Notes: generated by a model not told the origin, from the sequence alone. 62,976 bases of DNA, filler included, from Folioceros fuciformis (GCA_049999805.1; 4 parts of 4 records of this genome joined end to end with filler, not necessarily neighbours in it), one strand, 5' to 3'; counted from the whole stretch's first letter, positions 33-49,161 are shown. Numbers and translations: made by a program.

Positions 33-2412
33 ATGATCAATAAAATCCAGAGGCGCCTGCGCCCAGGCAAGCATAATTCCAAGGCCGATAATAATGACAC
101 TGGATCTGGTGGGGGTACCATGGGAGGAATTCCTTCGTCGTCATCCCCATCGCCGGCAGTGGTAGGGACCCAGACATCAGGCGGGGGTACTAATTCTCGT
201 GGAGGTGGAACCCCCACAGCTCCCGTTTCCAGACAAGGATCCCAGGTTGCCCCTGTGCGCACTACTGCAGCTGCCTCAGCAAACACAGGTACCCGCCCGG
301 GGGTGAAGGACCCTAAGGTACCTGGCAACGTGGCTGTCAATGGTGCCCTTTTTGAGCCTCTTCCTCTCTTCAGAGATGTTCCCAGCTCCGACAGACAGAG
401 CCTGTTTATTAAGAAACTCAATCAGTGCTGTCATACGTTCGACTTCACGGACCCCACCAAAAATGTGAAGGAGAAAGAAATCAAGCGTCAGACTTTGTTG
501 GAGCTGGTGGATTATGTGCAATCTGGGACGGGCAAGTTTACGGAAGCTGTGTTTGAGGACATCACAAAGATGCTGGTGACGAACCTCTTCCGGACGCTGC
601 CACCATCATCCCATGAAAACTCTGGGTCGGACAACTTTGATCCTGAAGAAGAGGAGCCCACCATGGATCCTGCATGGCCACACCTTCAAGTTGTCTATGA
701 GTTTCTATTGCGATATGTCGTTTCAACTGAGACAGATGCCAAACTCGTCAAGAGATATATTGATCATTCATTTGTCCTCAGACTGCTGGATCTGTTTGAT
801 TCTGAGGACCCTCGGGAGAGAGAGTACCTGAAAACTATCCTGCACCGTATCTATGGGAAGTTCATGGTGCACCGACCTTTCATCCGGAAGGCCATCACCA
901 ATATTTTTTACCGTTTCATATTTGAAACAGAGAAGCACAATGGGATTGGAGAGCTGCTGGAAATATTGGGTAGCATCATCAACGGGTTTGCTCTACCTTT
1001 GAAGGAGGAGCACAAACTGTTCTTGGTGCGGGCTCTCATCCCCTTGCATAAGCCCAAATGTGTGTCCATATATCACCAACAGTTGTCCTACTGCATAACA
1101 CAGTTTGTGGAGAAAGACTTCAAGCTTGCAGACACAGTTGTCAGGGGTCTCTTGAAGTATTGGCCTGTCACGAATAGTCAAAAGGAGGTGCTCTTCCTTG
1201 GGGAGTTGGAGGAGGTCTTGGAGGCTACTCAGGTGGCTGAATTCCAGCGCTGCATGGTTCCCTTGTTTCGTCAGATTGGCCGGTGCCTCAACAGTTCCCA
1301 CTTTCAGGTTATGAGCCAGACATCATCTCTGCTGTCATGCCTTGCACACTTGGGGCTGCCTGTCGTGTTCCATGTCGATTTCCTTCCTAGTCGATTGCTT
1401 GCGAGAGTCATGCTCACTGCAGTTTTGGTTTTAGGATGTGGGTGTATGTACGGATTACAGTGGATTGCGTTCATTTGTTTCTGGAGCAGGGAGTTTTATG
1501 CAGCATGTCCTAACTCATCATCTCAAGAGTTGCTGATGTTGTCTTGATTGATAACATTTCAGGTGTGAAAGTGAGTTGATTTCTAACATGCGTGGGGAGA
1601 CTTTGAGTTTGCTTGCATGCTCAGTGTCAAGTGATAATGACCCCCATGTTAGCCTCCTGAAGGGGTGCTGACCACGTAGGTCCAATGTGGCTGCGTCAGG
1701 GATGGTGGTGTTGCGAAGATCACTGCTAAATGCCTGTGGTTTGGCATGGCTTCTTGGGTATATATTTGATGTCTCATCTTTGATTAAAACCAATGATGCT
1801 TCAGAATGATGTGTCCCTTTGTTGACGACAAAATGCCCCAGTTTTGCAATGTTGACTGAGTATTCTGTTGAAGTATATAGTGAGTTTCTTCGCATGGCTT
1901 TGACATTGTAAGCTTTGCAGTGTTTTGAGGAGGTTTGAAGATATCGAGAGCTCTGTCTGCTACGTGCAGCTAAAGTGGTTTTTTTTCCTCACTGGGATGC
2001 TCAAAGGCCTTCTTTAATGTGGCAGGTGGCGGAGCGGGCGCTGTTTTTGTGGAATAATGATCACATTGTTAGTCTGGTTGCTCAGAATCGGACGGTCGTT
2101 TTACCTCTAATTTTTAATGCACTAGAGAAGAATACAAGAAGTCATTGGAATCAGGCTGTGCACGGGCTGACGTTGAATGTAAGGAAGATGTTCGTGGATA
2201 TGGATCAGGATCTTTTTCAGGAATGTCTGCAAAAATTTCAGGAGGATGAAGAAAAGGCAAAGGGACTGGAGGAGAAACGAGAGATAACTTGGAAGCGCCT
2301 AGAAGTGGTGGCAGCGTCGAGGGCAGTGGGTGCAGATACACTGTCAACAACTCAGGGACTGAATAGTAATATGGGGATGGCTTATGGCCAGAGGGCAGTT
2401 GTAGGGGGCTAG
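33..2412 (+). CDS. Protein phosphatase 2A B' (B56) regulatory subunit, 2 exons (33-1307, 2026-2412)
   Basis: B56 motifs [42 protein letters not shown] and [17 protein letters not shown]. The GT..AG intron 1308-2025 falls at the conserved HFQ/VAER junction. Confidence 0.96.
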
Positions 2413-4047: not shown

Positions 4048-4881
4048 GACTATCAACCTCTTTGCATGATTCTCAATGTAGCAAACCTTGAGATTGCTCA
4101 TCCTATCTTGTGTGCCACAATCAAACCTCCAACAAGGCTGTAAACCCTANNNNNNNNNNCTATCTTGTGTGCCACAATCAAACCTCCAACAAGGCTGTAA
4201 ACCCTAGCTTGCTTGCCACAATGAACCTCGACGTACCAAACCTTGAAATTGCTCACCTGGTCTTGTCTAGTCTTGTCATTGTGTGCTACAATCAAACCTT
4301 GAAATTGCTAACATCATAAAGAAGCTAATAAGGCATCCATTACTGGCCTTGCCACTCTCACCCTATGATTTTCACCATTGATTAGGGTTTCAAGTGTAGC
4401 TAAGCTATTGCTCATGAGAAAAGTCTCTTACATAAATAATTTTAAAAAAACCTGCAAAAAAATTACTGGTAAGATCATTATTTTAATAAAAAAAGCTGGG
4501 TTCAATGACGCCATATGCCACGACGTACTGTAATCGCTGCTGACGCCGATTGGCATATGCGTGGTGTAAAGTGAAACGTAGTCGACTGGCGTCTACGTAG
4601 TGTATGTATTCCCGCGTACGTAGGTGGTACTTAAGTGAATTGTGAATGGGTAAATAATAAGCATCGGATCGGACAGTGCACTCTATTCACCCTCGTCTCC
4701 CCTCTTCGAGCCTTTGCCCTCGTTCTCAAGCATCTGGTACCATCACAGGCAGCAGAGGGAGAGGCAGTGGCAGGGGCAGGGGCAGAGGCAGAGGCAGAGG
4801 CAGCGAGCGCTAGAAGAAGTTCCCATCGCATTGCTGTTGCTGTTCGCCCGTTGCTTCCGAGGGCGACGGTGAGGGAGGGCC

Positions 4882-8088
<3,207 letters not shown>

Positions 8089-9162
8089 AGCACGAATTTG
8101 AGTCGCAAGAATATGAGCGCCCACCAGCATCAATTGCTGGTCTGTTTTTGTGCCTGAGGTCTGCCTTCTTCGAGACTGTTTTGAAATAAGGCCTACGATG
8201 CCCGGCATCGGGCTTCTTCACTTTTGATGTTGTGAGAAGCTAGATTCATCCCCGGATTTCGTCAATAGGTGTGCGAATTTTCAGGACTCAGCAATGCACA
8301 TCAGGTTAAATTACTTGTTTGTTGATCGGTGATTTGTCATCACAACAGATTTTGTAATGGAGTCTCGCGAATTCTTTTGCCTTGTCTTGAAATAAAAGAC
8401 AACTCGGAACGAACAAGCAAACGAAGACGCCCTGGTTATTGGACTTGTCTGCATCTGGAGTTAAACGGTATTCGAGGAACGTGCCTATCGTCGCCCTCTC
8501 CACCCAAGGCGGCTCGTCACTATTCCAGGTGCGACAGCCGCTTCCCATTAATAGTCGCCGTTACACTGTCTGTACAGTCCAGTCTTTGGCGTCTATTCAC
8601 TTGTCACAAAGTGCAGTACCCAAGCGCGGGTTTGGCTATACTGTCCATACGTACTTTTGGGCTCTGTTACACCGAATCATGTTGACCTAGTGCGCTCCGT
8701 CGTTCGCCAACCTCCATATGCCTTTCATTATCTTGGATACCTTCGGAGAGGCTAGTACCTTTCGGCCTTTGGCTATATGCAGGTTGTTCTCCACCGTTGG
8801 AGTAGATGGGATTGTCCATCTTATTTTAATAATAAAAATTAATCCCAATATCTTGGATTAGGGTTTATAATGTATATAGATATATTTAGTATGTAATATA
8901 GCAAAAGATGTGAGCTCCATATCATTAACCATGGGATAATTTGCCCCGACATTGAAAGTATGGCATGTACAAGGACCCATAATAATTTGTCCCTACATTG
9001 GAAGTATGGCACATATAAGACCCATAATCCTCTCAACATCTATTGTTTATGGAAAGGCATAGATAATGCTAACCTACTGAGATGTTGAAAGCACTAGTTC
9101 TCTTGCGTATCTGAAAGGAGGTATTAACAAAGAGGAGGTTTCTTTATTTTGTTCCTTTCGAT

Positions 9163-9450
9163 GCCTATTCCTGTGCTCTTCCTAGCTCTTTGGTCAAGGT
9201 GCTCTTTCCTATTCATGTACTCGTTCTGACTCTTTGATCAAGGTGCTCTTGCCTATTCTTGTACACTTCCTAGCTCTATGATCAAGATATGCTTGCCTCT
9301 TCTTGTGCACTTCCTAGCTCTATGGTCAAGATACGCTTGCCTCTTCTTGTGCACTTCCTAGCTCTATGGTCAAGATACCCTTGCCTCTTCTTGTGCACTT
9401 CCTAGCTCTTTGGTGAAGATGCTTTTGCCTATTCTTGTGCTCTTTGATAG
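9163..9450. repeat. Tandem repeat, 44-bp unit, about 6.5 copies
   Basis: Unit gcctcttcttgtgcacttcctagctctatggtcaagatacgctt at 9163, 9207, 9251, 9295, 9339, 9383 and 9427. Confidence 0.85.
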
Positions 9451-9832
9451 ACGTGCTCTTTGTCACTTGTCTTGTACAAAATAAAAAAACTATGTGAGAT
9501 AGAGACATACAACCTAACAAACAATTCTTGAATTGTGCATTTTATTATCACTCTTGTGGAAATTAATGTTTGCAAACATTTCTTTGATGGACAATTCTCT
9601 ATAACCTGGACATTAGGCTCAATCACATGCATGTCATTGGTTTGCCTTTGCAACCAACGAAGTAGCATTTGTTATCAACTCAAACACTTAGGTTCTATTC
9701 ACCACAAATTCAGGTAAATGTAGTAACATATGTTAGACATCTTTTACTAACTTTTGCCAAACTAATATTTTTAGTAACTCTACACAATGGAGTATCTTGC
9801 AGATTAAGGATAATATATTCATAACTACAAGT

Positions 9833-9868
9833 GCCTTGAAGTGCCTTCAGTTGAAGGCACTTCAAGGC
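9833..9868. repeat. Perfect inverted repeat, 17-bp arms, 2-nt spacer
   Basis: gccttgaagtgccttca-gt-tgaaggcacttcaaggc. Confidence 0.9.
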
Positions 9869-9942
9869 TAATCTATTTGTCCTTTATGCTCAATTGATCT
9901 TACTTCACAACTACACAATATAAAATAAGGAACACCTAGCTT

Positions 9943-9981
9943 AGGTGGAAATGAGGAACACCTTGTTCCTCATTTCCACCT
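9943..9981. repeat. Perfect inverted repeat, 18-bp arms, 3-nt loop
   Basis: aggtggaaatgaggaaca-cct-tgttcctcatttccacct, extendable by cctag...ctagg. Confidence 0.9.
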
Positions 9982-10002
9982 TTCTAGGATTTTGTATACT
10001 CG

Positions 10003-10522
10003 GTGAAGAATTGGAAAAGGATGGAAGAGGAGAACCAATCACTGGCAAAAGCAGATATGGACGTAGGCCTATCGGACTTAAGAGTATTGGCCAGAAACAC
10101 GAAGGTTAAATATCATGTTATTCAACGGAACGTTCTGGAAATGAAGGCATTTCTGGTAAAACGGCCATATACGCTGTTTGTTATTTGCAGACTTGCCTCA
10201 CAGACTTTAGCGACATGAGTTTGACAAGTAGATGAACATCTCCGGGTTGGATGAAATGATTCGAGGATTTAGCAAATGCACTTCCAATACCATTTTTAGG
10301 GCTGTATTGATGCATGGAGTTGATATCATATCACTAATCAAGAGAGGCGCTCTAACCATGGTGCAAAAAGGGAAGTATACATACTTTGATATGGGAGAAG
10401 ACAAATATACCCCATAACGCAGGTGCGGTTGAAATTGTAGAATATTGCACCACTATTTGCAAATCAAGGGTTTCTTCTGCCACGAGTTATAAGGCATGGA
10501 GCAATGGTGAAGAAGCACCTAT
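10003..10522 (+). pseudogene. 5' part of a degenerate beta-class N4C/N6A DNA methyltransferase (N6_N4_Mtase-like), cut by the copia insertion
   Basis: Read across frameshifts and stops: VIQRNVLEM (10117-10143, like IxGDxLE), ADLPH (10187-10201, DPPY-like motif IV), TLIWEKTN (10383-10406, IxWxK) and VEY (~10437-10445). The frame from 10441 runs through the TSD into the 3' part. Confidence 0.6.
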
Positions 10523-10779
10523 TAATAGAAGATAGTGTGTTGAATCATTGCTTAGGGTTTCGTGTTATTATTCAGCACATATATAGTGTGTATGTGCATG
10601 TAGTTTTTATACAGCTACTTACCGTTTCGCTAGGGTTGTGTCTCTAGTTAAAGGTCATGCCTTTACATTTTCTAGATTAAGTCTAGTTCTTTTTTTCATT
10701 AATATGTTTTTATGTTTATAAACAATATAATGTAATTACTCAACATGTAATTGATCTGCACCAATTCCATATTTCGTCA
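10523..10779 (+). repeat. 5' LTR of copia-A (TA...CA termini)
   Basis: Direct repeat of 17331-17588; preceded by the TSD and followed by the tRNA-iMet PBS. Confidence 0.95.
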
Positions 10780-11141
10780 TGGTATCAGAGCCGTGAATAG
10801 GTGCAGATTGCATTCATAGGAATGCACATTAAATTGTGCACATGTAGGTGTGCATAAATATGTTTTTTGTGTTTGTTTCTTTATTAGAAATTAAGTTTCT
10901 AATAAGAAATCAAGAAGATGTTTTAAAAAACTGCTTTTAATTTATTTTCTTGGTTTTTATATAGAAATTTCTGCATTTCTAGGAGTAAGATCTAACGCAT
11001 CTGTTGCCAGATTGCTGCAAAGCAATCTGACATCAGGCACGCTAGAACGATTGCTAGAAGTGGCAGGAATTCTCATATAAAATCATAAATAGATTATAAA
11101 ATGGTTCTTGAAATTCTCAAAAACACAAAACATATGGCCTA

Positions 11142-11903
11142 ATGAATGGCAATCCTCAAGATGGTGGGCAACAATGGCCAGGACGGCCAATTCCCTTCCA
11201 CGAGCTGATCAACCAGCCAAGGAATCGACGAAGGGGACAGGGTGCGCATACAAATGCAGCAAGACAGACAACTGCACAGCAGCTCCATCAACAGATTACA
11301 GAATGGACAGCACGCACTCCTAATCAACCTGTTCTAACACTTGAAGTGAGGGAATCCTTCAACACACTGATTGAAGCCCTCTTTCCTGAACAGCACCATT
11401 TGGCGTTCGTCCCACCACCGAGGAACCCTAACAATCTCCCAGAAATTCGGGTACAACGAGCCTTTGACGGCAATGGTAATCCAAGAGGGTTCCTAACCAC
11501 ACACGTTGCACCACACACCAATGTCACAGAATTAGCCTCTAGGTTAGAAGCACATCAGCGGTATGTTGATAGGCGTTTTCAGAACATAAGCCAACAACTT
11601 GCTGCTGTTTCTGTTGACTTACGTGTGCTGTTGGAGCAGATTGGGCATTTAGATTTCAAGTTGCTTGCTTTGCTGAAGCCTGCTCTTCTTGCTAACCCTG
11701 CCACTAGGGGGACAGCTTGTAAGTCAGCAGCTAAAACTAACAAGCACCATAAATTTGATTATCCTAATTCATGCCCATCGTGCTCAACCTACACTTTTAA
11801 TCGCTGGGAGATTAGAAACCAGAACATAAGGGAAATCACAGGTAGGCAGATGGTCAACCTGCGTAGGTCTGACCAGCAGATTGGTCCTATCTTACCCTTG
11901 TGA
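11142..11903 (+). CDS. Extra 253-aa ORF upstream of gag in copia-A, unknown function
   Basis: Uninterrupted ATG-to-TGA ORF between PBS and gag, with a heptad-like region (LASRLEAHQRYVDRRFQNISQQLAAVSVDLRVLLEQIGHLD) and a Cys/His cluster (C-x8-HH-x7-CPSC). Confidence 0.65.
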   Translation: MNGNPQDGGQQWPGRPIPFHELINQPRNRRRGQGAHTNAARQTTAQQLHQQITEWTARTPNQPVLTLEVRESFNTLIEALFPEQHHLAFVPPPRNPNNLPEIRVQRAFDGNGNPRGFLTTHVAPHTNVTELASRLEAHQRYVDRRFQNISQQLAAVSVDLRVLLEQIGHLDFKLLALLKPALLANPATRGTACKSAAKTNKHHKFDYPNSCPSCSTYTFNRWEIRNQNIREITGRQMVNLRRSDQQIGPILPL

Positions 11904-12063
11904 GTTGTAGGCTGCAGTAAGCAGCCTATCTCTGATGTGCTAATTGCATCAGAGTCTTCTCTGAATCCTCATTTGTTGAGCTGCACAGGTTAGGTCACAC
12001 AAGTACATTAGTAGCACACTCATAACATCCTCACTGTGAGGAGGGCTAACAGCAGTCTTAGAC

Positions 12064-15000
12064 ATGGGTGACACTGCTAATCTACCGAGAGATGGATTCA
12101 GGGAGAAGGATAGATTTGGGGGGGCAGACTATGACATTTGGGTCATTAGAATGCGTGGAGCACTACAAAACAAGCTGTTGTGGGCATGGGCCAGTGGAAA
12201 AGAAAAGTTTCTTGCAGTCATAGGTACTCCAACTGCTACTAAGCAGAAGGCAATAGATTCCTGGACAATCAAGGATGAAGCAGCATAGTACCTTATCCGG
12301 AGTGGTCTGACGACTGACATGTTGAGACACACCTCTGGTTGCAAAACCTCAGCTGAGATATGGACGCGGCTTCAGGACCTGTACGCTGGAACAGATGACA
12401 CAACTCAAATGGCAGCACTTCGCAATATACAGAACTTAAGGATGAAAGAAGGAGAGTCTATTGAAAAACATCTAGTAGTCTTCAGAACTCTTATCTCCAA
12501 GTTTGAAAGTGCAGCACAGGAAAGTGTGAAGGATTCAGCACTGATCCTTCACTTCATGATGAGCCTCCCAGAATCTTGGTTACATTTCGTGACCTCCTAC
12601 AACACTTCGCAGCTGCAAGGGCAGAAGATAGCTAAAGCTGTAAATGTTACTCTCCCCAAACCGACATTTGCAGAATTTGTGGGAGCTCTTCTTCAAGAGG
12701 AAGCTGCAAGAGGACAATTCAAACGACCTGGTAAACAGCAAGCTTTGTACACCAACAACAAAGGACAGGGCAAAAAGCCCAACTTCAGAGGTAAACAGAA
12801 TACCTCAGGTGCTAGCAGCTCGCAAGGAGCTTCTACACAGAAGAAACCCAAGAAGGCTGGAAAGTGCCACTGGTGCCAAATTCCAGGCCATTGGGAAAGT
12901 GAGTGTCGAAAGAAGCAGTCCGGAGTACCTCGCAAGGAGGCAAACTCCACTTCTCAGACACACGTTGTGGTGACGAAACAAGGCTCATCTGCAACCCTTA
13001 CAGTAGGGACCAGGGAGTTTACTCATCCTTTTACTAATCCCACATGTCTGTCAATGAACACTCAAGGCAAACCCATCCTAGAGTGGTTCCTTGATACAGG
13101 TGCAACAGCGCACATCTATTTCGACTAAAACGCCTTCGTCACATACAGGTTAGTACGAGACAGATTTGTTTACCTAGGTGACGATAGCAGGCTTGTGTGT
13201 CCAGGCATTGGCACAGTCAAGCTTCCTGTCCCTTCAGGCATCACACTTCTACTCACAGATGTGTTCCACATGCCTGAAATGACAAGGAATCTCATTTCTG
13301 TAAGGAAAATGAATTTAGATAACAGTACACATATATTGTTTACTCCAACAGAATGTAGGATCTTAGATGCCTTTGATCATCGTAAGATCCTAGCCTATGG
13401 GTCGTTAGACACTGACCTGTTTAGGTTGCACACTCACATTAGCACTGCCACTGCCCATTTGGCTTCTAAGTCTCCAGAGATTGCTGAAAAGCAAGAAACA
13501 AAGGCTATGTTATGGCATGTTAGACTAGGTCATCCTCACAGCTCCAAGTTGCAAAAACTAGTTGTAAGTGACTTATATTTTGACGGGACGATTGGCAGCT
13601 TGCCCCCCTTACCTTTATGTGAAGCTTGTGTGCTGTCAAAATGCCATCAGGCTGCCTTTAAAAACAAGGCTCCTCACAAGGCTTCTAAAGTCCTTGAACT
13701 TGTGCACACTGACATATGTGGGCCACTCTCACAGCCCTCCATCGGAGGAGGCAGATATTTCCTCACATTCACAGACGACAAGACCAGATTTGTCATTGCT
13801 TATATCTTGAAAGCTAAAAGTGAGTGCTTCTCTCTGTTTAAAGAGTGCATGAAGCTTGCAGAGAGATGGACAATCAAACAGCTGAAAACCCTACGTTCAG
13901 ACAATGGCGGAGAATTCACATCAAATGAATTTCAGGCTTTTTGCAAAGACGAGGGTATTGGGAGACAACTTACAGTTGTTTATACGCCGCAGCAGAACAA
14001 TGTTGCTGAGCGCTTGAACCTGATGTTGCAGGAGATGGTTTCCTCTATGCTTCATCAAGCCTCATTGCCTCTCTCCTATTGGGCTGAAGCCCTTATGACA
14101 GCTGTGTATCTACGCAACAGATTACCTACAACTGTTGTGCTCGGACAGACCCCTTTTGAAGTTTTTTATGGCCGGAAACCAGCTATCCTTCATCTTCGGA
14201 CCTTCGGGTGTGTGGCATACGCCTTCATACCTAAAGCCAAGAGACCAAAGTTCGCTGCTAAAGCCAAGAAATTCCTCATGATAGGATACACTGAAGGTAT
14301 CAAGGCTTATAAGCTATACGACGTACCTCAGAACAAGGTGGTCTATGCACGCAGTGTGACCTTTGGTGAAGGTCGAACTTGGCAACAAGTGGGAGCTGTC
14401 CCCACAGAGGAGGCACTCGATTTCCCTACCCTGCCCGACATCACTGTTTTTCTAGGTCTCGCACTTGAGGAGGTTGCTCCTGCAGGGGGGGAAGAACAGC
14501 CAAATGATGATGATGAGCGAACAGCAGAGCAGGAGCAGGACTTGGATGCCGAACACATTGCTGACTTGCAGCACCAACCTCCTCACGATGCTGCTGAACC
14601 AGATCATCCACCTGACCTTTTACCTGCTCCCCATCCAGATTCTGACGAGGATGCTGATCCTCTTGATAGTGATGCATGAGGTGAACCTGAACAACCTTTG
14701 CAACCTGTCCTGCCTCCACAACCTGAGCGCCGTTATCCTGCAAGAGAAAGACGGGCACCGGATTATTATCAGTCACAGGACTTTCGCAAGCCAACAGCTA
14801 ATGTAGCAACTTCTCTGGACTTGGCAATTGAACCTCAATCCTATGAAGAAGCTCTTAGTCGTCCTGATGCTGCTGAGTGGAAGAAGGCAATACAATCTGA
14901 GTATGATTCCTTGATAAAAAATGGAACATGGGAACTTGCTAAGTTGCCTCCTGGACAAAAGGTGGTATCATGCAAGTGGGTGTTTAAACTAAAGGTAAAG

Positions 15001-16431
15001 GCAGACGGCACTTTCGACAGATACAAGGCATGACTTGTAGCTCGTGGTTTCTCACAAGTGCCTGGTCTTGATTACTTCGAGACATATGCTCGTGTCATGA
15101 AGCTGGCCACGTTTCGCATAATCTGTGCCCTGGCAGCACATCAAGACTACGAGTTAGACATGTTTGATGTAAAGACAGCATTTTTACATGGCAAGCTCGA
15201 CACGGAAATCTATATGCAGCAGCCTACAGGATACGAAGTAAAGGGCAAAGAGGACCATGTCTTACGCCTGATAAAGACTCTGTACGAGCTGAAACAATCA
15301 GCTCTTGAGTGGAATGCCGTCCTGGACGAAGAGCTGCGAGCATTGGGCTTCATCAAGTGTGTTTCAGATAGCAGCCTGTATGTCTACAGATATGGTGATG
15401 TGGTGTGCTACTTGGTAGTTTACGTGGATGACCTGATCCTTTCCTGCAATAGCCCCACATTCATCACCATAATCAACAAGTTGTTAGCAACCAAGTTTGA
15501 GATGACAAATCTTGGAGCTCTACAAAGCTGCCTGGGAGTTCTAATTCAAAGAGATAGGAAGAACAGATCCATCTCTCTTACTCAGCCTCGCTACTTACTT
15601 GAATGTGCAGAACAGCTTGGCCTGAAGGATGTGAAACCAATTGCTACCCCACTACCTTGTGGACTGAAGTTTAGCAAGTCCATGAGTCCTGAAACACAAA
15701 GTGAAAAAGACGAGATGAGGTAAGTCCCTTACAGGAAGGGCGTTGGCAAATTAATCTATGCAGCCAACACAACACGGCCTAATGTGGCCTACACAACAAG
15801 CGTACTCTCTCAATATCTTGAAAACCCTGGACAAACACACTAGACAGGAGTTAAGAGAGTTGTTAGGTACTTGAAAGGCGCATCAGACATAGGAATTAAG
15901 TTCAGATACATTCCTGGCGCGCCATTGGAGCTGGATGTGTACACCGACTTAGATTATGCAAGAGATATCGATACACGTAAGTCAGTTTCAGGGTATGTTG
16001 TAATGGTTGCAGGAGGACGAATTTGCTGGTCCAGTAAGAAGCAGCCCACTGTGGCTACATCCAGCACCGAGGCCGAATACCGTGTGCTTACAGCTGCAGC
16101 CAAGGAGATAGCTTGGTGTAAGTTAATGTTTAAAGAACTAGGGCTGCCACTTCCAACCTGCACCACAATCAAAACTAACAACCAGGGATCAATGAACTTG
16201 GCACAAAATCCTGTATTCCACTCTCGCACAAAGCACGTAGAAGTGGAGTATCACTTCATTCAAGACCTCATCAAGTCAGGACAGATCATGCTCGAGTATA
16301 TTCCCACCACAGACAATCCAGCAAATATTTTTACTAAGTCCCTCAGTAGGGACACACACAACAGGCATATGAAAAGCCTGGGTATGGGTAGTTCTGAAAG
16401 CTGTTCAGATACCCTATCTATAGACGCCTAG
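12064..16431 (+). pseudogene. copia-A gag-pol (gag with CCHC knuckle, protease, integrase, RT, RNase H) with premature stops
   Basis: CHWCQIPGHWESEC, WFLDTGAT, LWHVRLGH, LVHTDICGP, RSDNGGEF, YVDDL, KHVEVEYHF. Stops at 12286, 13126, 14677, 15031, 15721 and 15841. Confidence 0.95.
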
Positions 16432-16606
16432 CCTAGCAAGTGGGAGCATAAACATCTCCAGGCCTTCTGATATTTATCTACTACTGGAGAAAGGTTTGTG
16501 CCCACATGGCATCACAGGGCTAGCTGAAACACACATTCAGAGGCGGTTCAGTGGATGAAGCCTATCGACAGACATAGCCGTGAACAATCTCTGCTATCCA
16601 GCTACT

Positions 16607-17260
16607 TCAACAAACGGCGGCAATTTCGAGATACTTACGGCTTCTCTCAAGCGGGAAGGGATCGTAGGTGCTGCCAACTCCAGGCTCGTCGCCAACAGTC
16701 CCAACAAAACCAATTTTTGCAAGCTTTTTCACCAACTGCTTGATCTCGTCGATCTCAAGTGGAAACATGCGAGGGCTTCTGGGAGGAACGTGGGTCAAAA
16801 AAAAAAGCAACTCCAGAACCTTGCTCCTGGTCATCTTCAGCAAGTCCTCGACCTCCTCACACTTCTTCTTCGTGTTGGCAAGATGGACAAGCAGGTTTCT
16901 GTCAGCTTGAGTGGGCCAGCCTTCTGGTCTCTTCGCCCGGTCAACAGCACACAGGGGAGAAGGGTCACACATTGCAGGACGCTCCTCCCGCGGCCTCTTG
17001 TTGTCCCTGCCGACACTGTTGCTCCGGGAAAACATGATGCTGAATACAGTCGCACCTGAAGTCACAGCGGCGCACAGAATTGCGGAAGCAAGAAGCCTGT
17101 TGAGCTCAGAGATGGTAAAGATGGCATAGTCCACTGGCGCCTGCACCCGGGCTTTGATAAGGCAACTCGAAACATCAGACTCCATTACGCCCCGATGTGC
17201 TCCAGCTACGCAAGCGTGTACATAGACAATGGGGAGCAATGCTGCAGATCGCGAGTCCAT
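16607..17260 (-). CDS. Antisense ORF (up to 217 aa) between pol and the 3' LTR of copia-A
   Basis: Open minus-strand frame with protein-like helical segments (ADRNLLVHLANTKKKCEEVEDLLKMTRSKVLELLFFL; LEIDEIKQLVKKLAKIGF). No recognised domain. Confidence 0.45.
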   Translation of the reverse strand: MDSRSAALLPIVYVHACVAGAHRGVMESDVSSCLIKARVQAPVDYAIFTISELNRLLASAILCAAVTSGATVFSIMFSRSNSVGRDNKRPREERPAMCDPSPLCAVDRAKRPEGWPTQADRNLLVHLANTKKKCEEVEDLLKMTRSKVLELLFFLTHVPPRSPRMFPLEIDEIKQLVKKLAKIGFVGTVGDEPGVGSTYDPFPLERSRKYLEIAAVC

Positions 17261-17330
17261 AGCTGAGACAATGGAACAAGTTCTCCGCTAAACTGAAGAC
17301 AACCCTTCCGCAATGATCAACAAGTGGGAG

Positions 17331-17588
17331 TAATAGAAGATAGTGTGTTGAATCATTGCTTAGGGTTTCGTGTTATTATTCAGCACATATATAGTGTGTA
17401 TGTGCATGTAGTTTTTTATATAGCTACTTACCGTTTCGCTAGGGTTGTGTCTCTAGTTAAAGGTCATGCCTTTACATTTTCTAGATTAAGTCTAATTCTT
17501 TTCTTCATTAATATGTTTTTATGTTTATGAACAATATAATGTAATTACTCAATATGTAATTGATCTGCACCAATTCCATATTTCGTCA
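17331..17588 (+). repeat. 3' LTR of copia-A
   Basis: Follows PPT aagtgggag; followed by TSD cctat. Confidence 0.95.
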
Positions 17589-17593
17589 CCTAT

Positions 17594-18090
17594 TTCATTC
17601 TGCAAATGCCCAAGTTGTCTCTCTGTACCAGAAACCCTTGGAGTTGATGAGCAGTCTTGTGAACATGTTTTCCTCGGAGGGCAAGTGTGTGGTTGATGCA
17701 TGCGCAGGATCTGGCATTCTTCTTCAAAGTGCAATTCATAATGGAAGGCATGCCGTTGCAATTGATGTCAAACTTAAGTGCACTACTTATATTACACAAC
17801 GAGTTATTGGTATAGGTTCCTTGCTTGACTTTGTTGAAGAGATAACCATTAAACCCTTCACATGTGGACCATCCAAGTTATGGGCAAAAGAAGTATTTGG
17901 GGATAGCAGCTTTGAACGGAAAATGCATGTTTACAGTCTCCTAGGGAAGAAAGATGAGGTCTTCTCCCAGAGTGATGACAGGCCAATGGAGGACCTGCAC
18001 GCCATCACGGTGTGGGATGAAAATGGAATTATACTCCCCCCAAACAGTGGAAGACCCTCACTTTTTCGTGCTCGAGGTGGAAGGCAATGA
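17594..18090 (+). pseudogene. 3' part of the beta-class DNA amino-methyltransferase (SAM-binding motifs X, I, II)
   Basis: YQKPLELMSSLVNMFSSEGKCVVDACAGSGILLQSAIHNGRHAVAIDVKLKCTTYITQRV follows the family pattern HPTQKPxxL..LI...S..GD.VLDPFxGSGT...A....GR..IGIE......RL. Confidence 0.75.
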
Positions 18091-19384
18091 CTGTGGCAAT
18101 GCGGATGCTCAACGACTGAGAGAGTTAGATGTTGTAGTTGATTCTGAGGCCAACCATGATAACCCTGTTTTTGTCTAAGTAGTTCATGATACACTTCGTT
18201 GTCATTTTGATATGCGCTTATTGACATTGACATAAACTTGCATTCGCATGTTTGGACTACGCGTTGTGTCAAAAACCCTTTAGGGTAAGTGACAAAAAGG
18301 TCTCTTGTATAAGAGAGTGCGCTGGTAGNNNNNNNNNNNNNNNNNNNNNNNNNNNNNNNNNNNNNNNNNNNNNNNNNNNNNNNNNNNNNNNNNNNNNNNN
18401 NNNNNNNNNNNNNNNNNNNNNNNNNNNNTGCCAAACGAGCTTTGTGGAATCCGACCGTTTCGATTAGACCTTGTTGCTTAGTAAGTCGGCAAACACAAAG
18501 AGCATTCATATCTTAAAAATAAAGAGATATCAGCTCTCAATCCCCCCCCTTTCACCAAGATACCTTCAGCTCTAAAAAAATTATCCATACTTTCAAGTCC
18601 ATGCTCCTTTCCCTCTCCCTCCCCAAGGATATTTTGTACAAGTTAGAATATGTTTTTATTTATCGTAAAAACTTCTAAACACACTCATAACGGTTTGCAA
18701 TGTAGCCAATGGTCATATTGCCCTCTAACCTCGCATATTAGCGGAAATAGTGTGTATCTTTTCATTTGCGTACATCATTGCACTTTACATTATTCCATGT
18801 CATTCACCTTCCTTAACCGAATATATCAACAAAGATTGCATGAATTTTCAAAAAGTTGGGAGCATAATATTATGCCCTCTCACCTTTTGAAAATTATGAG
18901 CTCGCACCAACATTTGGCATGTCATACCTTTTATTCATAACATGTCAAATGAAGTATCTCGTGGATCCACGCTTAGAAAGATTAAGATTGTCCATGCAAA
19001 TACTAAGCCTCATGTTCATGCATGTTAAAATTATCCACCCATAGCTACTCATGCCAAAGTATTACAATTATAAGTACGTAGAGTTTCTCACAATTGCTTC
19101 AATTTTATGCAAACCAAGTCATGTTTATTGGAGACACTAAGCATCTTAACATTCATGCTAAGTGAAATAGAGGAAGAAACAACAAGACTTATGGGGTACT
19201 TGCTGGTGGCTAATTTTGGGCTTAAGACGTAATGGTGGCTCAAAGCAATCCTCACACACTATGTTTGATGATGTCATTTGACAATCATGCATTATGTTCA
19301 ATGATGTTATTCGCCAATCATAAACTATGGCTGATGAAGCTATTCACAAACATAAATTGTAGTAATTTATACATGCCGAGGTGT

Positions 19385-23101: not shown

Positions 23102-23201
23102 NNNNNNNNNNNNNNNNNNNNNNNNNNNNNNNNNNNNNNNNNNNNTTAATTAATTAANNNNNNNNNNNNNNNNNNNNNNNNNNNNNNNNNNNNNNNNNNN
23201 N
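23102..23201. other. Artificial scaffold linker N-TTAATTAATTAA-N (also at 45568-45667 and 59133-59231)
   Basis: The same palindromic all-frame-stop 12-mer is centred in an N run three times. Confidence 0.9.
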
Positions 23202-25283
23202 GGCTAGGACCTACCAACGGCTGCCCCAGAGGAGCTGCCCCCTATGGAGCCCGTGTTGGCTCGTGACGAGCCTGTGCCGGCTGTTCTGGCACCCAACCCT
23301 GGTCCTCGTCGCAGTACTCAGCATCGACCACCACCATCTCAGTGGGCCGAACCGCCTTACCAGTCCACCGACTTCAGGACCACCTTCAGCTCACTGTCGG
23401 CGACTTTATTCCCAGCGGCCCTCCCAGCGGAACCGACCACTCTTTCCCAAGCTCTTGCAGGACCTGAGTCCTCGCAGTGGCGGATCGCAGTGGAGGATGA
23501 GTACCAGAGTCTGCTCCAAAATAAGACCTGGGAACTCGTCGACCCGCCCCCTAGAAGGAAGACCATCTCCTGCAAGTGGACGTTCAAGCTTAAGCTCAAC
23601 ACCCAAGGACAGGTGGACCGCTTCAAGGCTCGGCTAGTGGCCCGCGGATTTTCCCAGGTTGAAGGCCTGGATTACCAGGAGACCTTCTCCCCCAGTGGTA
23701 CGCGCCCAATCCATACGGATCCTCCTTGCCCTCGCGGCCGAGCTAGATCTGGAGCTCCATCAGATGGACGTCAAGACTGCTTATCTCTATGGTGACCTGG
23801 ACGAAGAGCTCTACATGGACCAGCCGGAGGGCTACGTCAGCAAGGAGTTCCCTAACAAGGTGCTCAGGCTAAGGAAATGCACCTATGGCCTTAAGCAAAG
23901 CTGGCGAGTGTGGTATACCACTACGCACACCTACCTGCTTAGCATCTCCTTTACCCAGAGCGCAGCCGACGAGAATGTATACATGCTGACTCGAGGGCCG
24001 CACATTGTCATCCTTGCCCTGTACGTGGACGACCTCATCCTTGCTGCTAGCAAGTTGGACCTGCTGGCGGAAGTTAAACATCTCCTAAGCTCCCGCTTCG
24101 AGATGAAAGACATTGGAGAGCTTGATTTCTGCCTTGGGATTCAGATTCTAAGGAATCGAGCTGAAACGAAGCTGGTCATCCACCAGCACAAGTATATCAA
24201 CGAGATACTGCGGAAGTTCAAGCTGGATCAAGCCAGGCCCGTCACCACGCCCTATGCTGCGGGCACAAGACTCACTGCTGAGCAGTGCCCCCAGACAGAG
24301 GAAGAGACCAAGGACATGCATGGGATTCCTTATCGACATGCCGTCGGAAGCCTCCTCTTCGTCAGCGGCTGGACGAGGCCCGACATCCATTACTCCGTCT
24401 CCACAGCATCACAATTCCTGGAGAACCCCGGCAAGGAACATTGGGCTGCAGTCAAGAGAGTGTTCCGCTACTTGAGGGGCACCCCGACCTATGGGCTGAT
24501 GTACCAGAGTGGAGGGACCGGCAAGCTCCTCCTCAGCAGCTACACAGACGCAGATTGGGCATCTGACCCAGACTCAAGGAAGAGCCTGAGCGCCCACTGT
24601 TTTCTGCTATCCTCAGCTGCTGTGAACTGGAGCTGCAAGAAGCAGACTTCCATCGCGCTATCCTCCACGGAGGCCGAGTACAAGTCGCTTACAGATGCCT
24701 CCAAGGAAGCCGAGTGGGAGCGATCCTTCTTAGCTGACGTCGGCCAGAGACAAGACCAACCGACACCACTCTAATGCGACAACATGTCGGCTCTGGCTCT
24801 GATCTCAAACCCCAAGTTCCATGCCAGGACGAAGCACATAGAGATCCAGCACCACTACATCCGGGATGTGGTTGAGCGCAAGGTGGTAGATGCCAGCTAC
24901 GTGCCCACGGATGACAACTTGGCGGACATCCTGACGAAGGGACTGCCCAAGCTCCGGCACTACCAGCACATGAAGAGTATGGGGCTAATCGACTTTGCCC
25001 CCCACCTCACCGACAGAGGAAGACCGGGAGCCGTTCCCTCGACTGGGGGAGTCTCAGGCTAGGTTATGTCACCCTTAAGAGGGAGTGTAAAGTTCAGTAA
25101 GAGCTACATAACCCCAGCTAGTATTTAGGCGAGTTAGACTAACTCGAACTAGTTAAGCAAACTGTCGCACCCCTAGGAAGGGGTGCCCTCGGGTCCCCTA
25201 TATAAGGGCCCCCACCCTTGTACTTTGTAACACTTTTCTAATCTACGCTTCCGCTCTTTTGATTACCTTAGAAAAGTTCTCAG
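23202..25283 (+). mobile_element. 3' half of a Ty1/copia element (copia-B): RT-RNase H, PPT and 3' LTR
   Basis: KWTFKLK..RFKARLVARGFSQ, QMDVKTAYL, YVDDL, YTDADWA, KHIEIQHH; frameshift near 23690 and stop at 24772; PPT aagagggag 25077-25085; LTR starts TG at 25086 with TATA at ~25199. LTR 3' end is approximate. Confidence 0.9.
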
Positions 25284-26256: not shown

Positions 26257-26337
26257 GCAGCTTTGGCCGAGTGGTTAAGGCGTGTGCCTGCTAAGTACAT
26301 GGGTTCGCCCGCGAGAGTTCGAATCTCTCAGGCTGCG
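26257..26337 (+). tRNA. trnS-GCT: tRNA-Ser (anticodon GCT)
   Basis: Acceptor stem gcagctt/aggctgc; A box tggccgagtgg; anticodon arm gtgtgc-ctGCTaa-gtacat; long variable arm; B box gttcgaatc; T-run downstream. Confidence 0.97.
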
Positions 26338-33310: not shown

Positions 33311-35760
33311 ATGCAAACAAGCATGGTCTACGGGATCCATGGCTGCCTGGACCGTGGCAACTGGCTGGCAGCAGGACCAGTTGTGGGGACGGGTTTCTTG
33401 GACCCAACAACAAAGTGGTGGTCTTGGGCTGACAGGGGTTGTTGTTGGAAGAGCTCCTGCTCACCTGAGTTTCAGGAACCAACGAATGGCAAGCTTGCAA
33501 GCCGCTGCCACCAGATGCAGCAGTATCTTGCCAGCAAAGGCAGCCCGTCCTGGGAAGGATACTGTTTCACTGCTGCCTGTGAAAGAGGAAAGGGGTGCAA
33601 CTGCTGAAACCGTGAGGAAGCTATGCATGGAGGGTCATCCAAAGGGAGGCTGTTGAGAGTTTGGGGGTCTTGGTGGAGACGGACTGCTGTGTTTCCAGGT
33701 CTCTCTGTTATACGGTGCTCAGGCAATGTGTGGTGGAGAGGAATCTGGTATTGGGGCGGCGCGTACATGCTTTCAGTGTGAGAAACGGGTATCGGTCGGA
33801 TACTTTCCTGTGCAACCACATCCTGCGGATGTATGGTTCTCATGGCAGGTTGCAAGACGCGATGGATGTGTTCACCGATGTTGCCAGACCAGATGCCTTC
33901 ATGTGGTCTTCCCTGATATCTGCGCATGTCAAAGAGGGACCGGGCAAGGAGGCCCTGGAGCTGTATCATCGGATGCGCAGGTTAGGTGTTAAGCCGAATG
34001 GCCATGTGTTTGTGACAGCCCTACAGGCCTGCGCAAAGGGAGGAGACCTGGTGACTGGGCAGGAGCTGCATGCTCACTTGTTGGCTGCTGGCGTTGAGCC
34101 TGATTTGTTCGTTTGCAGCTCCTTGGTGGACATGTACGCGAAGTGTGGCAGCCTGGAAGATGCTCACAGAGTGTTTGACGGACTCCGTCACAAGAATGTG
34201 GTAACGTGGACTGCTTTGATTGCAGGATACTCCCAGCAGGGCATGGGGCAAGAAGCACTTTAGCTTTACAGAGATATGCAAGCAGAGGGTGTTGCCATAC
34301 CCAATTCCGTGACCTTCTTGTGCCTCTTGCAAGCCTGTGCAAGTGTGGGCGCTCCAGGTTTGGAGATGGGGAAGCAGCTTCACGCACAGATCAGAGAACA
34401 AGGACATCAAGCTGATGCCTTTGTAGCCAACAGTTTGGTGAACATGTACGCCAAGTGTGGCAGTTTGGAAAATGCTCAGAAAGTGTTTGACGGGCTTGCT
34501 CGAAAAGATGTGGCCACGTGGAATGCCATGGTTGCAGGATATTCTCAGCAGGACATGGGGCAGGAAGCCCTTCGAGTGTATGACACCATGCAACAAGAAG
34601 GCGCAGTTGCCCCAGACTCCGTGACCTTTGTGTGTCTCCTTCAGGCATGTGCAGGGCTGGGCACCACAGCTCTTGAGGCGGGGAAGCAGCTTCATGCGCA
34701 GATCAGAGATGGGGGACATGAGGCTGATATGTTTGTTACAAACAGTTTGGTGAAAATGTATGCCAAGTGTGGCAGTTTAGCCGACGCGGAGATAGTGTTT
34801 GATGGTCCTGGTCGGAAGGACTTGGTCACGTGGAATGCCATGATTGCAGCGTATTCTCAGCAGGGCATGGTAGTACCAGATTCCGTCACATTTGTTTGCC
34901 TCCTGCAGGCATGTGCAAGTGTGGGCCCCTTGGCTTTGGAGAAGGGGAAGCAGCTACATTTGCAGATTCGTGAAAGAGGACATGAAGCTGATGCGTTTGT
35001 AGCTAGCAGCTTGTTAAAGATGTATACCAAGTGTGGTTGCTTGGAATCTGCTCGGAAAGTGTTTGACGGGCTTAATCATAAAGATGTAGTGACTTGGACT
35101 GCCTTGATCGCAGGGTGTTCCCATCAGGGAATAGGCCAGGAAGCTCTCGGGCTGTATGGCGCGATGAAAGACCAAGGCATGGCTTTACCCGATTCTGTGA
35201 CGTTTGTGTGCCTTCTTCAAGCATGTGCCAGGGTGGGCAGCTCGGCTCTGGCACAGGGCAAAGAGCTTCATGCGGAAGTGAGAGAGCTGGGATATCAAGC
35301 CGATGTACTTGTAGCCAACAGTCTGGTGAACATGTATGCTAAGTGCGACAGTTTGGAAGATGCTCAGAGAGTGTTTGATGGACTAGGTGACAACTATGTG
35401 GTGACGTGGAATGCAATTTTAGCAGGATATTCCCAGCAAGGCATGGGCCTGGAAGTTCTTCGTCTCTACAGTGCTAGGCAAGAAGGCGGACGGGCTGTAC
35501 CCAATTCTGTAACATTTGTCTGCCTCCCTTTCTCCAAAGCTGGGGTACCTACGCTTGCACATCTCCTTTATCCTAGATAAAGGAGATCTTGCAGCACATG
35601 CTTTGATGTGGAATATATACAATGGTGCTCAAATGTGGGAGGAAGCACAGTTGCTTCTGGCAAGGAGGAGGAAAATGAAGATATTGAAGCAACCAGGTCA
35701 GAGCACGGTGGACAGACACGGATGGAGTGGTCCATAGTTTTACAGTCGGGGAAAGAACTG
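33311..35760 (+). pseudogene. Disrupted PLS-class PPR gene ending in an E domain with a WW-like PG box; no DYW domain
   Basis: Repeated SLVNMYAKCGSLEDA..VFD / VVTWNA..AGYSQQG / PDSVTFVCLLQACA motifs; frameshift at ~33645; in-frame TAG 34261-34263; internal deletion at ~34869; break at ~35526; KQPGQST-(frameshift)-WTDTDGVVHSFTVGE at 35687-35753. Confidence 0.88.
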
Positions 35761-45567: not shown

Positions 45568-46119
45568 NNNNNNNNNNNNNNNNNNNNNNNNNNNNNNNNN
45601 NNNNNNNNNNNTTAATTAATTAANNNNNNNNNNNNNNNNNNNNNNNNNNNNNNNNNNNNNNNNNNNNATGTCATTTTTTAAGGCAGGGCTTAAACACACA
45701 CGAAAAACAAATGAAAGAAACACATAATCGTGGGGACATCACCAAGGGAGAGGAGGAGCCGTGTAGAGTTCATGCTTGCCAGCCTCCTCCTCCTTCCCTC
45801 CAGCCCATAGCCAATTAAGGTGTGGAAGCTTAGGAGCTCAATTGGTCACCATGCCTTCTATAACATTGGCTGCACCTTTCCTGCCTAGGACTCGGGACTT
45901 CAAGGCAATAAATGACCATGCCTTCTATAACATTGGCTGCACCTTTCGTGCCTAGGACTCGGGACTTCAAGGCGATATATGCATGGTTAGAAGGCTGCTA
46001 AATGTACATCTAGCATGGAGGGGGGTGTATGGTAGGCGGTTGGTGGAGGAGGTGTGAAGGGTTATCACGACGCACCCTCCAATACAATGAGAGGTGTCGG
46101 TGGTAACCGCAATGTACAA

Positions 46120-48065: not shown

Positions 48066-48068
<3 letters not shown>

Positions 48069-48100
<32 letters not shown>
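48069..48100. repeat. (AT)16 microsatellite inside the RT coding region
   Basis: Sits within the codons for EEDIYMSQP. Confidence 0.9.
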
Positions 48101-48102
<2 letters not shown>

Positions 48103-48587
48103 TCCTCTAGAAGGCCATGCAAGAAGGCAGTTTTGACGTCTAGCTAGTGGACTATCAAGTTGAAGTGGGCAGCAATTGCTAGGAGTATTCTAACAGAGGT
48201 TGATTTCATAACAGGGGCGAAAGTCTCATCGTAATCTAGACCAGGGACTTGACTATACCCCTTGGCTACTAATCTGGCTTTATACCTCCCCACACTGCCA
48301 TCTTTGTTTAATTTTTTTTTGAACACCCATTTGCAAGCAATAGGCTTGCGACCAGTAGGTAGGTCAACTTCCTTCCATGCCTTGTTTTGAATAAGAGAGG
48401 AGTATTCAGACTCTATGGCCTTTTTCCATTGCTCTGCCTCAGGGCCTTCTATTGCTTCCTTATAGGTAGCAGGTTCATCAAAGAAGCAGCAATATTGAGG
48501 ACAAAATCCTGAGAAAGGGGAGTAGCAGTGACCATACCTACGACATAATTTGGTTTCCACTCTTCTATGGGACGACGAAGCCTTGTA

Positions 48588-49161
48588 TGTCGTGAAATTG
48601 TGGCAAAAATGGACTTATAGTAGAGCATCATGGTGAACGTCATAGTTTAGTGGAATTCAGTTGATTAGATAATAGGTGATTAAACTAACTCAACCTAAAT
48701 TAGGTAAATGGCTAAAATACTAGCCATGGCTACTTGCCCACTAGAAGCACGTGGGCTCATACAGCCCATGGAAAACTGCTTGGAGGGGCACCACACATAA
48801 AAACAAAACACAGCGAGGAAAAAGGTAGTTGTCGAAGTCGCTCATGAGAGGAACCACCGGACGACCTAAACCTTTTTTTGCTGTTCACTAGCCGTCTATG
48901 AAAGGAAGAGCTATGCAGATTGAGGGTGTAAGGGAGATGGTGGCATCCCGCTAGTGACTTACCAACTCTGGGCAGCCCGACGAGGGCAGTCCCTTTTTGC
49001 AGCTTTACAACACGGAGTGAGCTATGGCGCATGTGAGCAGCCTAACATCTTAAGGCATGGACAATCTTTTTGTTCTCTTTTTCTGAGTGCACAAGACATT
49101 AGCCTTGCAGCTGATGGACTGAATTGAAGTGCTCACAACAGCTGATACCGGGAGCACGACA
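48588..49161. mobile_element. 574-bp solo LTR nested in copia-D
   Basis: Termini TGTCGTG...CACGACA; 4-bp TSD tgta at 48584-48587 and 49162-49165; removal restores PLRRSTRLRRP. Confidence 0.85.

Follow-up and report, generated by a model that had tools for sequence, protein, structure and literature searches.

Beta-class DNA amino-methyltransferases share the N6_N4_Mtase domain (PF01555), and the canonical consensus of their motif IV is (D/N/S)-P-P-(Y/F/W). In eukaryotic nuclei the closest described cases are N4CMT of the rotifer Adineta vaga and the Marchantia enzymes MpDN4MT1a and MpDN4MT1b. The Marchantia pair carry a TSPPY motif, according to the accessible part of the report on them (Walker et al., bioRxiv 10.1101/2021.02.12.428880); the rotifer enzyme bears a C-terminal chromodomain and, in the accessible text of its description, is stated to be without eukaryotic homologues (Rodriguez et al., PMC8885841). 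In the survey of Iyer et al. (PMC4738411), as far as its accessible text goes, six eukaryotic acquisitions of this structural group are counted, none of them in land plants, N6A methyltransferases are said to be few in land plants, and the active site of METTL14 is described as disrupted. Here we describe a locus in a 62,976-nucleotide stretch of DNA from Folioceros fuciformis (GCA_049999805.1), the whole of which we call the window. Positions 9988-10522 and 17594-18090 of the window very probably make up a pseudogene: a dead copy from a short, intron-less branch, with D-L-P-R-G as motif IV, of a plant-lineage family of beta-class, PF01555-type methyltransferases. Its nearest relatives are two database proteins, P0001 and P0003, and a Ty1/copia retrotransposon separates its halves.

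A methyltransferase gene in two halves

To the right of the retrotransposon an open reading frame (ORF) of 176 codons, 17560-18090, matches PF01555 with 32.5 bits (gathering score 26.7; expectation value, E, 1.1e-7), spanning positions 164-214 of the 221 in the profile, its C-terminal quarter only. Other Pfam methyltransferase families match this flank at E >= 0.06, and the Pfam scan of the C-terminal ORF gave neither a chromodomain nor any further match in the tail. By sequence, the best solved relatives in the Protein Data Bank (PDB) are M.RsrI (E 0.003) and TTHA0409. NCBIfam returned sub-threshold DNA-methyltransferase matches only (E 0.007-0.06), and word-based protein searches with the same ORF found nothing at E <= 1e-3 among longer or similar-length proteins.

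The left flank came into view with a profile of the family, made from 11 relatives and run on 2887 six-frame pieces of the window. Its top four matches are the right flank, at profile positions 153-248 (87.2 bits, E 1.4e-25), and three pieces of the left flank, which are adjacent, lie on the plus strand and are collinear with the profile, each in another frame (Table 1). The same collinear chain is reproduced by tblastn with P0001, residues 44-88 of which match piece 1 at E 0.007. Piece 3, taken as 10356-10532, aligns with profile positions 95-112 at E 5e-3 to 1e-2 and, by tblastn, with residues 6-47 of another relative, P0006, at E 0.005. The piece with D-L-P-H at the motif IV position is not significant alone, at -0.4 bits against the family profile. 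An earlier note, made from the sequence by itself, had claimed here a beta-class PF01555 gene with the permuted motif order of its class; the above-threshold Pfam match and the collinear profile hits (4-33, 56-96, 95-112 and, across the join described below, 151-248) bear this out. A second methyltransferase fragment that seemed to lie near 6584-6661 had E values of 0.09-0.36 by tblastn and was absent from the profile hits; we put it down to chance.

The intervening element is complete-looking. Everything that defines a Ty1/copia element was found: two long terminal repeats (LTRs), a 5-bp target-site duplication, a primer-binding site and the order gag-integrase-reverse transcriptase, the copia order being evident from the integrase upstream of RVT_2. 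Consecutive ORFs of one frame (12289-13128, 13129-14679, 14680-15033, 15034-15723 and 15844-16431) contain Pfam matches to Retrotran_gag_2, Pol_BBD, gag_pre-integrs, rve, SH3_retrovirus and RVT_2. The LTRs show up as two direct repeats, 10523-10608/17331-17416 (86 nt, 100% identity) and 10604-10779/17413-17588 (176 nt, 97% identity), and when aligned they differ by five substitutions and a single one-base indel. The substitution rate in rice is about 1.3e-8 per site per year, and at that rate a divergence of 5/257 would date the insertion to some 0.7-0.8 million years ago, which suggests that it is young.

Removal of the element together with one CCTAT copy (10523-17593, 7071 bases, or 3 x 2357) yields the translation ...GAMVKKH-LFHSANAQVVSLYQKPLEL... 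in a single frame, just as the earlier note had proposed. The span it gave is the right one to excise, but the element proper ends at 17588, and the remainder is one copy of the target-site duplication. Joining the flanks raises the family-profile score from 87.2 to 92.3 bits, adds 0.7-5.4 bits by tblastn, and lengthens the C-terminal alignment by 12 residues leftward across the junction. Because the profile gain is modest, it is mainly the anatomy of the LTRs and duplication, together with collinearity, that supports the join. Contigs from the same sample that lie on the locus end at 10480 and resume at 17559.

The gene is dead. Homology demands the frame order first, second, third, first, and hence three frameshifts; there are two in-frame stops besides, as well as the copia insertion, and no full protein can be made. 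The copy also runs continuously across both of the intron sites that are conserved in full-length relatives, the first of which falls in piece 3 and the second in the C-terminal half. In both respects, death and the lack of clear introns, the earlier note was right. Upstream of the copy, tblastn of the window with Ginkgo proteins found no match to the ParB-like N-terminal region that full-length relatives possess.

Table 1. Features of the window, and large N-terminal exons of full-length relatives on other contigs
Feature	Position	Strand	Remarks
Pseudogene piece 1, first frame, N-terminal region to strand 4	9988-10215	+	..KYHVIQRNVLEMKAFLVKRPYTLFVI..; profile 4-33, E 6e-4 to ~1e-3
Motif IV position, D-L-P-H, second frame	10190-10201	+	aligns to profile 29-37; relatives D-[I/L]-P-x-G
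Pseudogene piece 2, second frame, helix and strand past motif IV	10232-10414	+	..FSKCTSNTIFRAVLMHG..; profile 56-96, E 7e-4 to ~1e-3
Pseudogene piece 3, third frame, first frame again from ~10441	10356-10522	+	reaches insertion point
I-W-E-K-T-N	10389-10406	+	within piece 3
Pseudogene C-terminal half, one open frame	17594-18090	+	stop 18088-18090
Y-Q-K-P	17626-17637	+	C-terminal half
Motif I, D-A-C-A-G-S-G	17695-17715	+	C-terminal half
Motif II, G-R-H-A-V-A-I-D	17743-17766	+	C-terminal half
Frameshifts	near 10165-10190, 10356-10385, 10441-10490	+	from profile alignments
In-frame TAG stops	10208-10210, 10229-10231	+	codons after D-L-P-H
Ty1/copia LTR retrotransposon, complete-looking	10523-17588	+	LTRs, target-site duplication, Pfam domains; inserted within decayed gene
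5' LTR	10523-10779	+	257 nt; TGGTATCAGAG next, at 10780-10790
3' LTR	17331-17588	+	258 nt; purine run just before
Target-site duplication CCTAT, left copy	10518-10522		read at element's edge
Target-site duplication CCTAT, right copy	17589-17593		read at element's edge
Copia gag-integrase-reverse transcriptase frame	12289-16431	+	broken by at least 4 in-frame stops
PP2A B56 gene, two exons	27-1547, 1939-2412		
PPR (pentatricopeptide repeat) gene	34264-35580		
Trihelix gene	58052-59179		
tRNA gene	26257-26337		sole Rfam match in window
Identical assembly linkers	23102-23201, 45568-45667, 59132-59231		44 N + TTAATTAATTAA + 44 N; stops in all frames
Large N-terminal exon	L004 1569-3035		invariant Y-x-V-I-G-G-x-H-S-x-E-A-R-R core
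Large N-terminal exon	L013 603-2270		same invariant core
Large N-terminal exon	L019 204-1769		same invariant core
Large N-terminal exon	L057 2826-3467		same invariant core

Relatives and their phylogeny

Searched exhaustively with HMMER, 1.84 billion representative proteins yielded 46 relatives at E <= 1e-3, none at 1e-10, the best with 46% identity. Many are full-length, with their parts in the order G-D...D-[I/L]-P-x-G strand-4 region, W-x-K-x-N, Y-Q-K-P and D-x-C-x-G-x-G. PF01555 matches all seven of the relatives tested, six of them above its gathering score. Four are Ginkgo biloba proteins (Gb_37443, Gb_17912, Gb_10123 and Gb_03516), and the annotated names among the others examined are 'hypothetical protein' or 'DNA modification methylase'. 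Among metagenome contigs, 145 stretches matched; 110 of them encode relatives, and 80 were kept. That the dead copy points to a family, as had been claimed, thus holds good: there are the 46 proteins, the Ginkgo paralogues and many contigs.

In a tree of the C-terminal region the window copy groups with P0001, P0003, P0006 and P0027 (support by the Shimodaira-Hasegawa-like approximate likelihood ratio test, SH-aLRT, 80), inside the family (94). One protein in this tree, P0033, is mis-anchored, within the family, and two that gave no anchor, P0029 and P0046, were left out. P0001 (323 residues) and P0003 (446) are each a single ORF that has no ParB-like part and has D-L-P-R-G as motif IV; P0006 and P0027 are fragments that begin downstream of that motif. 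On these sequence comparisons, the window copy appears as a member of a short, intron-less sub-branch, which might have been derived by retroposition or by partial duplication.

A tree of the full domain, from which the window copy was omitted, sets eight family members apart from 18 prokaryote-type sequences (SH-aLRT 99, stem 1.33), and no prokaryotic sister group emerges in it, the ParB-fused proteins included. As judged from these alignments, then, the family is a clade distinct from the prokaryote-type enzymes. It may go back to a ParB-methyltransferase fusion that was transferred long ago from a prokaryote or phage.

Full-length members

Some 45 of the 80 kept contig loci are of eukaryotic type, with the methyltransferase domain in three exons split at the same two sites, one inside W|x-K-x-N and the other directly after the G-x-G of motif I. 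Upstream of the domain, full-length members have an exon of 490-555 codons, and they end in acidic C-terminal tails. Strong purifying selection constrains them: dN/dS (the ratio of nonsynonymous to synonymous divergence) is 0.02-0.05 between three diverged loci, in the three of six comparisons in which dS is unsaturated. Nucleotide similarity among diverged loci is lost within ~50 bp outside either end of the coding sequence.

The region encoded by the large exon matches DUF6551 in Pfam below threshold only, and a profile search of PDB sequences found no match to it. An AlphaFold model of the region is of low confidence (mean predicted local distance difference test, pLDDT, 50.6), and when it was submitted to Foldseek, Noc, ParB, KorB and sulfiredoxin made up nearly all of the first 45 hits (E 6e-5 to 0.2). 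We read the region, from this model, as putatively ParB-like. In a plant nuclear gene, the combination of such a domain with a methyltransferase would be out of the ordinary.

Motif IV, fold and catalysis

Motif IV varies in the family. Among the relatives it is D-L-P-R-G, D-I-P-H-G, D-I-P-Y-G, D-I-P-S-T or D-I-S-Q-G; in the 30 contig loci where it can be read, several of which are near-identical copies, it is D-I-P-Y-G (18), D-I-P-H-G (9), D-I-P-M-V (2) or D-I-P-R-G (1), the first two being the forms that most intron-bearing members have. The D-L-P-H of the window copy departs from the canonical consensus. The earlier note had called it DPPY-like: it does lie at the expected position in the profile, but it is neither DPPY nor TSPPY. 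D-I-P-Y-G occurs also in P0054 and P0057, two proteins of prokaryote type that bear adenine-methyltransferase annotations, and because of this the variant need not be inactive. Elsewhere the family is uniform. The Q, K and P of Y-Q-K-P and the glycines of motif I are invariant in an alignment of 11 sequences; in one of 27, full invariance holds for one of the motif I glycines, with Q, K, P and the second glycine close to it.

The fold was predicted for P0001, the nearest full-length relative, rather than for the broken window copy. The AlphaFold2 model (pLDDT 73; predicted template modelling score, pTM, 0.75) has as its top Foldseek matches CcrM (6pbd, E 1e-11), M1.HpyAVI, M.MboIIA, the rotifer N4CMT (8s9o), M.PvuII and M.RsrI, all between E 1e-11 and 1e-9, with the METTL3-METTL14 catalytic domain lower in the list (E 3e-7 and weaker). 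The predicted fold is of the beta-class DNA amino-methyltransferase type. The assignment to PF01555 thus survives the check that the earlier note had suggested: the match is significant, the other methyltransferase families stay at E >= 0.06, and the fold predicted for the nearest relative is DNA-type ahead of METTL3.

The roles of the beta-class motifs in binding S-adenosylmethionine (AdoMet) and the flipped base are established for the enzymes at large, and we apply them here by homology. In working members of the family Y-Q-K-P, motif I (D-x-C-x-G-x-G) and the acidic residue of motif II would hold AdoMet, and the loop D-[I/L]-P-x after strand 4 would receive the flipped base. Where the aromatic residue of that loop is replaced—by R in the closest relatives, by H in the window copy—methyl transfer has probably been weakened or lost, and it is the loss of the aromatic that suggests this for the D-L-P-R-G branch. 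Because motif IV is neither DPPY nor TSPPY, the writing of N4-methylcytosine (4mC) or N6-methyladenine (6mA) by the family is speculation, above all for that branch.

Copy number and mobility

Contigs from two DNA runs of the same sample, X1 and X2, were placed on the locus at >=80% likeness. Their summed depth (X1/X2) is 88/127 at 10090-10384 and 53/64 at 17760-18054, as against 7.7/11.4 in the unique bin 9500-9794, and at position 10069 three further X2 contigs have a different letter. These observations hint at several paralogues in this genome, with the caution that summed depth is not copy number.

Elsewhere the family duplicates readily, as the Ginkgo deletion variants and a pair of contig loci attest. 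The Ginkgo models (P0005, P0050, P0051 and P0052; 488-758 aa) are near-identical and differ by large internal deletions, which in some of them remove motif IV or the W-x-K-x-N region; the set looks like recently amplified, partly decaying copies. In the contig pair, a 3.16-kb segment with a family member (L011 4739-7895, L012 1743-4900) is 99.3% identical between loci whose flanks differ, and the L011 copy is 5'-truncated and lacks the opening stretch of its large N-terminal exon. Here the gene was recently duplicated or mobilised at the DNA level.

The transposon carriage that the earlier note had suggested found no support: around the window copy we saw neither a transposase nor terminal (inverted) repeats nor element ends. 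Directly upstream of where the family homology starts there are two perfect hairpins, 9833-9868 and 9943-9981, with 17- and 18-bp stems and loops of 2-3 nt, 75 nt apart; TTCTAG follows the second, and summed contig depth begins to rise in the bin that contains them (9795-10089). A Helitron end at the hairpin and CTAG (9943-9987) was considered and rejected, since G rather than T follows CTAG and the spacing is atypical by the usual rules for such ends. Farther upstream are two tandem arrays, one of a 44-bp unit (9162-9444; 6.4 copies, 86% matches) and one of a 46-bp unit (8936-9028; two copies).

Alternative origins

Several observations weigh against the pseudogene as we have reconstructed it. 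Six left-flank fragments searched singly in Pfam gave no match, and the assignment of the N-terminal region would come down to the order and adjacency of hits that each reach only about E 1e-3 to 5e-3. The joint that an empty site would produce, 10522-to-17594, is not among the 15 joints listed of the 71 in contigs placed on the locus. In the C-terminal tree the branch of the copy is long (1.17), and the support for its subgroup is just 80. Up to the assembly gap at 18329 there is no sign of a poly(A) tract or flanking duplication, such as might accompany retroposition. As for the family, its description as a plant one appears to rest on Ginkgo, on the presence of introns and on a few contigs whose neighbouring genes look plant-like (L011 has a short-chain dehydrogenase, L057 a retrotransposon gag), and the ParB-like call would stand on the pLDDT 50.6 model and the sub-threshold DUF6551 hits.

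Of the other explanations, one overlaps our own: that the methyltransferase-like sequence is itself an amplifying repeat, or is carried by one as transposon cargo or a captured fragment. The raised summed depth over bins that hold methyltransferase sequence only, the extra X2 contigs at 10069, the near-identical Ginkgo deletion variants, the 5'-truncated, 99.3%-identical L011 copy of the L012 gene amid other flanks, the two perfect hairpins, and the many family members in the databases that are short fragments on singleton contigs would all suit a repeat. We nevertheless think it a possibility to be kept in mind rather than the probable answer: summed depth is not a copy number, the search around the window copy met neither a transposase nor terminal inverted repeats nor element ends, the similarity of diverged loci does not reach more than ~50 bp past the coding sequence, and the full-length members have conserved introns and dN/dS values of 0.02-0.05, as host genes do. 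A viral route, in which the family entered plants with integrated DNA of giant or polinton-like viruses and the window copy is a fragment of this, strikes us as very improbable. Chloroviruses and polinton-like viruses commonly carry PF01555 enzymes, to go by the accessible parts of two reports (PMC7248222; bioRxiv 10.64898/2026.05.28.728513), yet no viral hallmark genes were found near the window copy, IMG/VR holds no full-length relative—seven loci align, over C-terminal residues 250-317 only—and family members have spliceosomal introns and are strongly constrained.

That the sequence came recently from a bacterium or phage, or that the assembly is contaminated with bacterial DNA, has next to no probability left, and the idea is by now largely refuted. 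The domain family is overwhelmingly prokaryotic and phage-borne, a feature search with P0003 led to phage and bacterial PF01555 clusters, and the best sequence matches in the PDB are bacterial. The locus itself speaks otherwise. A plant copia with its target duplication sits in the sequence, 4160-18328 is free of N, and the same window has PP2A B56, PPR and trihelix genes; the nearest relatives are an intron-bearing eukaryotic clade, not the 18 prokaryote-type sequences, and the seven viral contigs align with the C-terminal AdoMet-binding region alone (residues 250-317). The earlier note's horizontally acquired, bacterial-type gene, if understood as a recent import, fails on the same grounds: a separate clade (SH-aLRT 99), introns, and purifying selection in the full-length members. 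Hardly better placed is an origin from a eukaryotic RNA or protein methyltransferase of the Trm11, METTL or HemK type, with a superficial likeness to DNA methylases, which we hold to be most unlikely. Motif I is generic to class I methyltransferases, there are weak matches to FtsJ and Methyltransf_23 (E 0.06-0.1), and the METTL3-METTL14 domain does appear in the fold list (E 3e-7 and weaker), lower down. But PF01555 is the sole family above threshold and matches seven of seven relatives, Y-Q-K-P ahead of motif I is the permuted order of the beta class, and the first-ranked folds are all DNA N6A or N4C methyltransferases, even if DNA as the substrate of this family is putative.

The window and its sequencing data

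The window is plant nuclear DNA. In addition to the linkers of Table 1 it has further gaps of 10 N and 100 N, one of the latter (18329-18428) 240 bp past the stop of the pseudogene; linkers and gaps together mean that the window is a scaffold stitched from contigs. Other copia-type fragments lie at 23208-24774 (plus strand, RVT_2) and 46865-51988 (minus strand; gag, integrase and reverse transcriptase).

Both DNA runs of the sample, X1 and X2, contain the stretch, and none of the runs listed as containing it is an RNA run. An RNA run, X4, whose link to the sample is a guess, gave two short pieces only, both on the copia element, and has no bearing on expression. Contigs of another run, X3, on 9500-18328 differ from the window almost entirely by C>T (626) and G>A (448). 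This is the pattern of a bisulfite- or enzyme-converted methylome library, and methylation data for the sample may exist.

Significance

By itself the window copy is unimportant. It leads, however, to a separate clade of PF01555-type genes in plants that is intron-bearing, constrained, and furnished with a ParB-like module. We found no description of a plant family of this kind in the literature searched, in the accessible parts of which Marchantia DN4MT1 is the sole plant case of PF01555 type, and the clade appears to be undescribed; plant PF01555 genes that the main texts pass over might appear in the supplementary phyletic tables of PMC4738411 and PMC8885841. A bolder proposal is that land plants, Ginkgo at least, use this constrained family of ParB-like and D-I-P-Y/H-G methyltransferases to write 6mA or 4mC, that they gained it separately from the Marchantia and rotifer enzymes, and that intact paralogues survive in the present genome. 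Taken whole, we think that unlikely. Should any member prove active, it would add a new candidate to the possible writers of the contested 6mA and 4mC signals in plant DNA; should the members instead be inactive AdoMet-binders, they would be a second degenerate amino-methyltransferase kept by selection, after METTL14.

Comparison with known systems

The family resembles the bacterial beta-class enzymes CcrM, M.RsrI, M.MboIIA, M1.HpyAVI and M.PvuII in its PF01555 domain, recognized by profile, and in the order of strand-4 motif, Y/T-Q-K-P, motif I and motif II. Foldseek also matches the model of P0001 to theirs (E 1e-11 to 1e-9), and M.RsrI is the best PDB match by sequence. It differs from them at motif IV, D-L-P-H in the window and D-[I/L]-P-x-G in the family as opposed to (D/N/S)-P-P-(Y/F/W), and in being a separate, eukaryotic nuclear clade with introns and acidic C-terminal tails; the window copy, moreover, is broken. 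In prokaryotes and phages, fusions of ParB to a methyltransferase (PF02195 + PF01555) offer another likeness, the ParB-like region of full-length plant members being N-terminal, and ParB-fused bacterial proteins are among the nearest hits outside the family. Unlike such fusions, the plant proteins have a much longer N-terminal region (~490-555 aa), and the window copy and its closest relatives are without the ParB-like part.

With the Adineta vaga N4CMT (PMC8885841, 8s9o) and the Marchantia MpDN4MT1a/b the family shares a eukaryotic nuclear setting, the PF01555 domain and the permuted order. The parallel that the earlier note drew with these N4C enzymes nonetheless breaks down at motif IV, D-L-P-H here and D-[I/L]-P-x-G in the family as against TSPPY in Marchantia, as reported in the accessible text. 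It is such published features that set the Marchantia enzymes apart, since the Marchantia and rotifer sequences are outside our trees. From the rotifer enzyme, as its accessible description has it, the window copy differs in having no chromodomain by Pfam. For the D-L-P-R-G branch, METTL14 may offer an analogy: there, too, the permuted fold would have been kept and the aromatic residue of strand 4 lost. METTL14 belongs to the MT-A70 clade, not to PF01555, and the analogy is one of mechanism rather than of membership.

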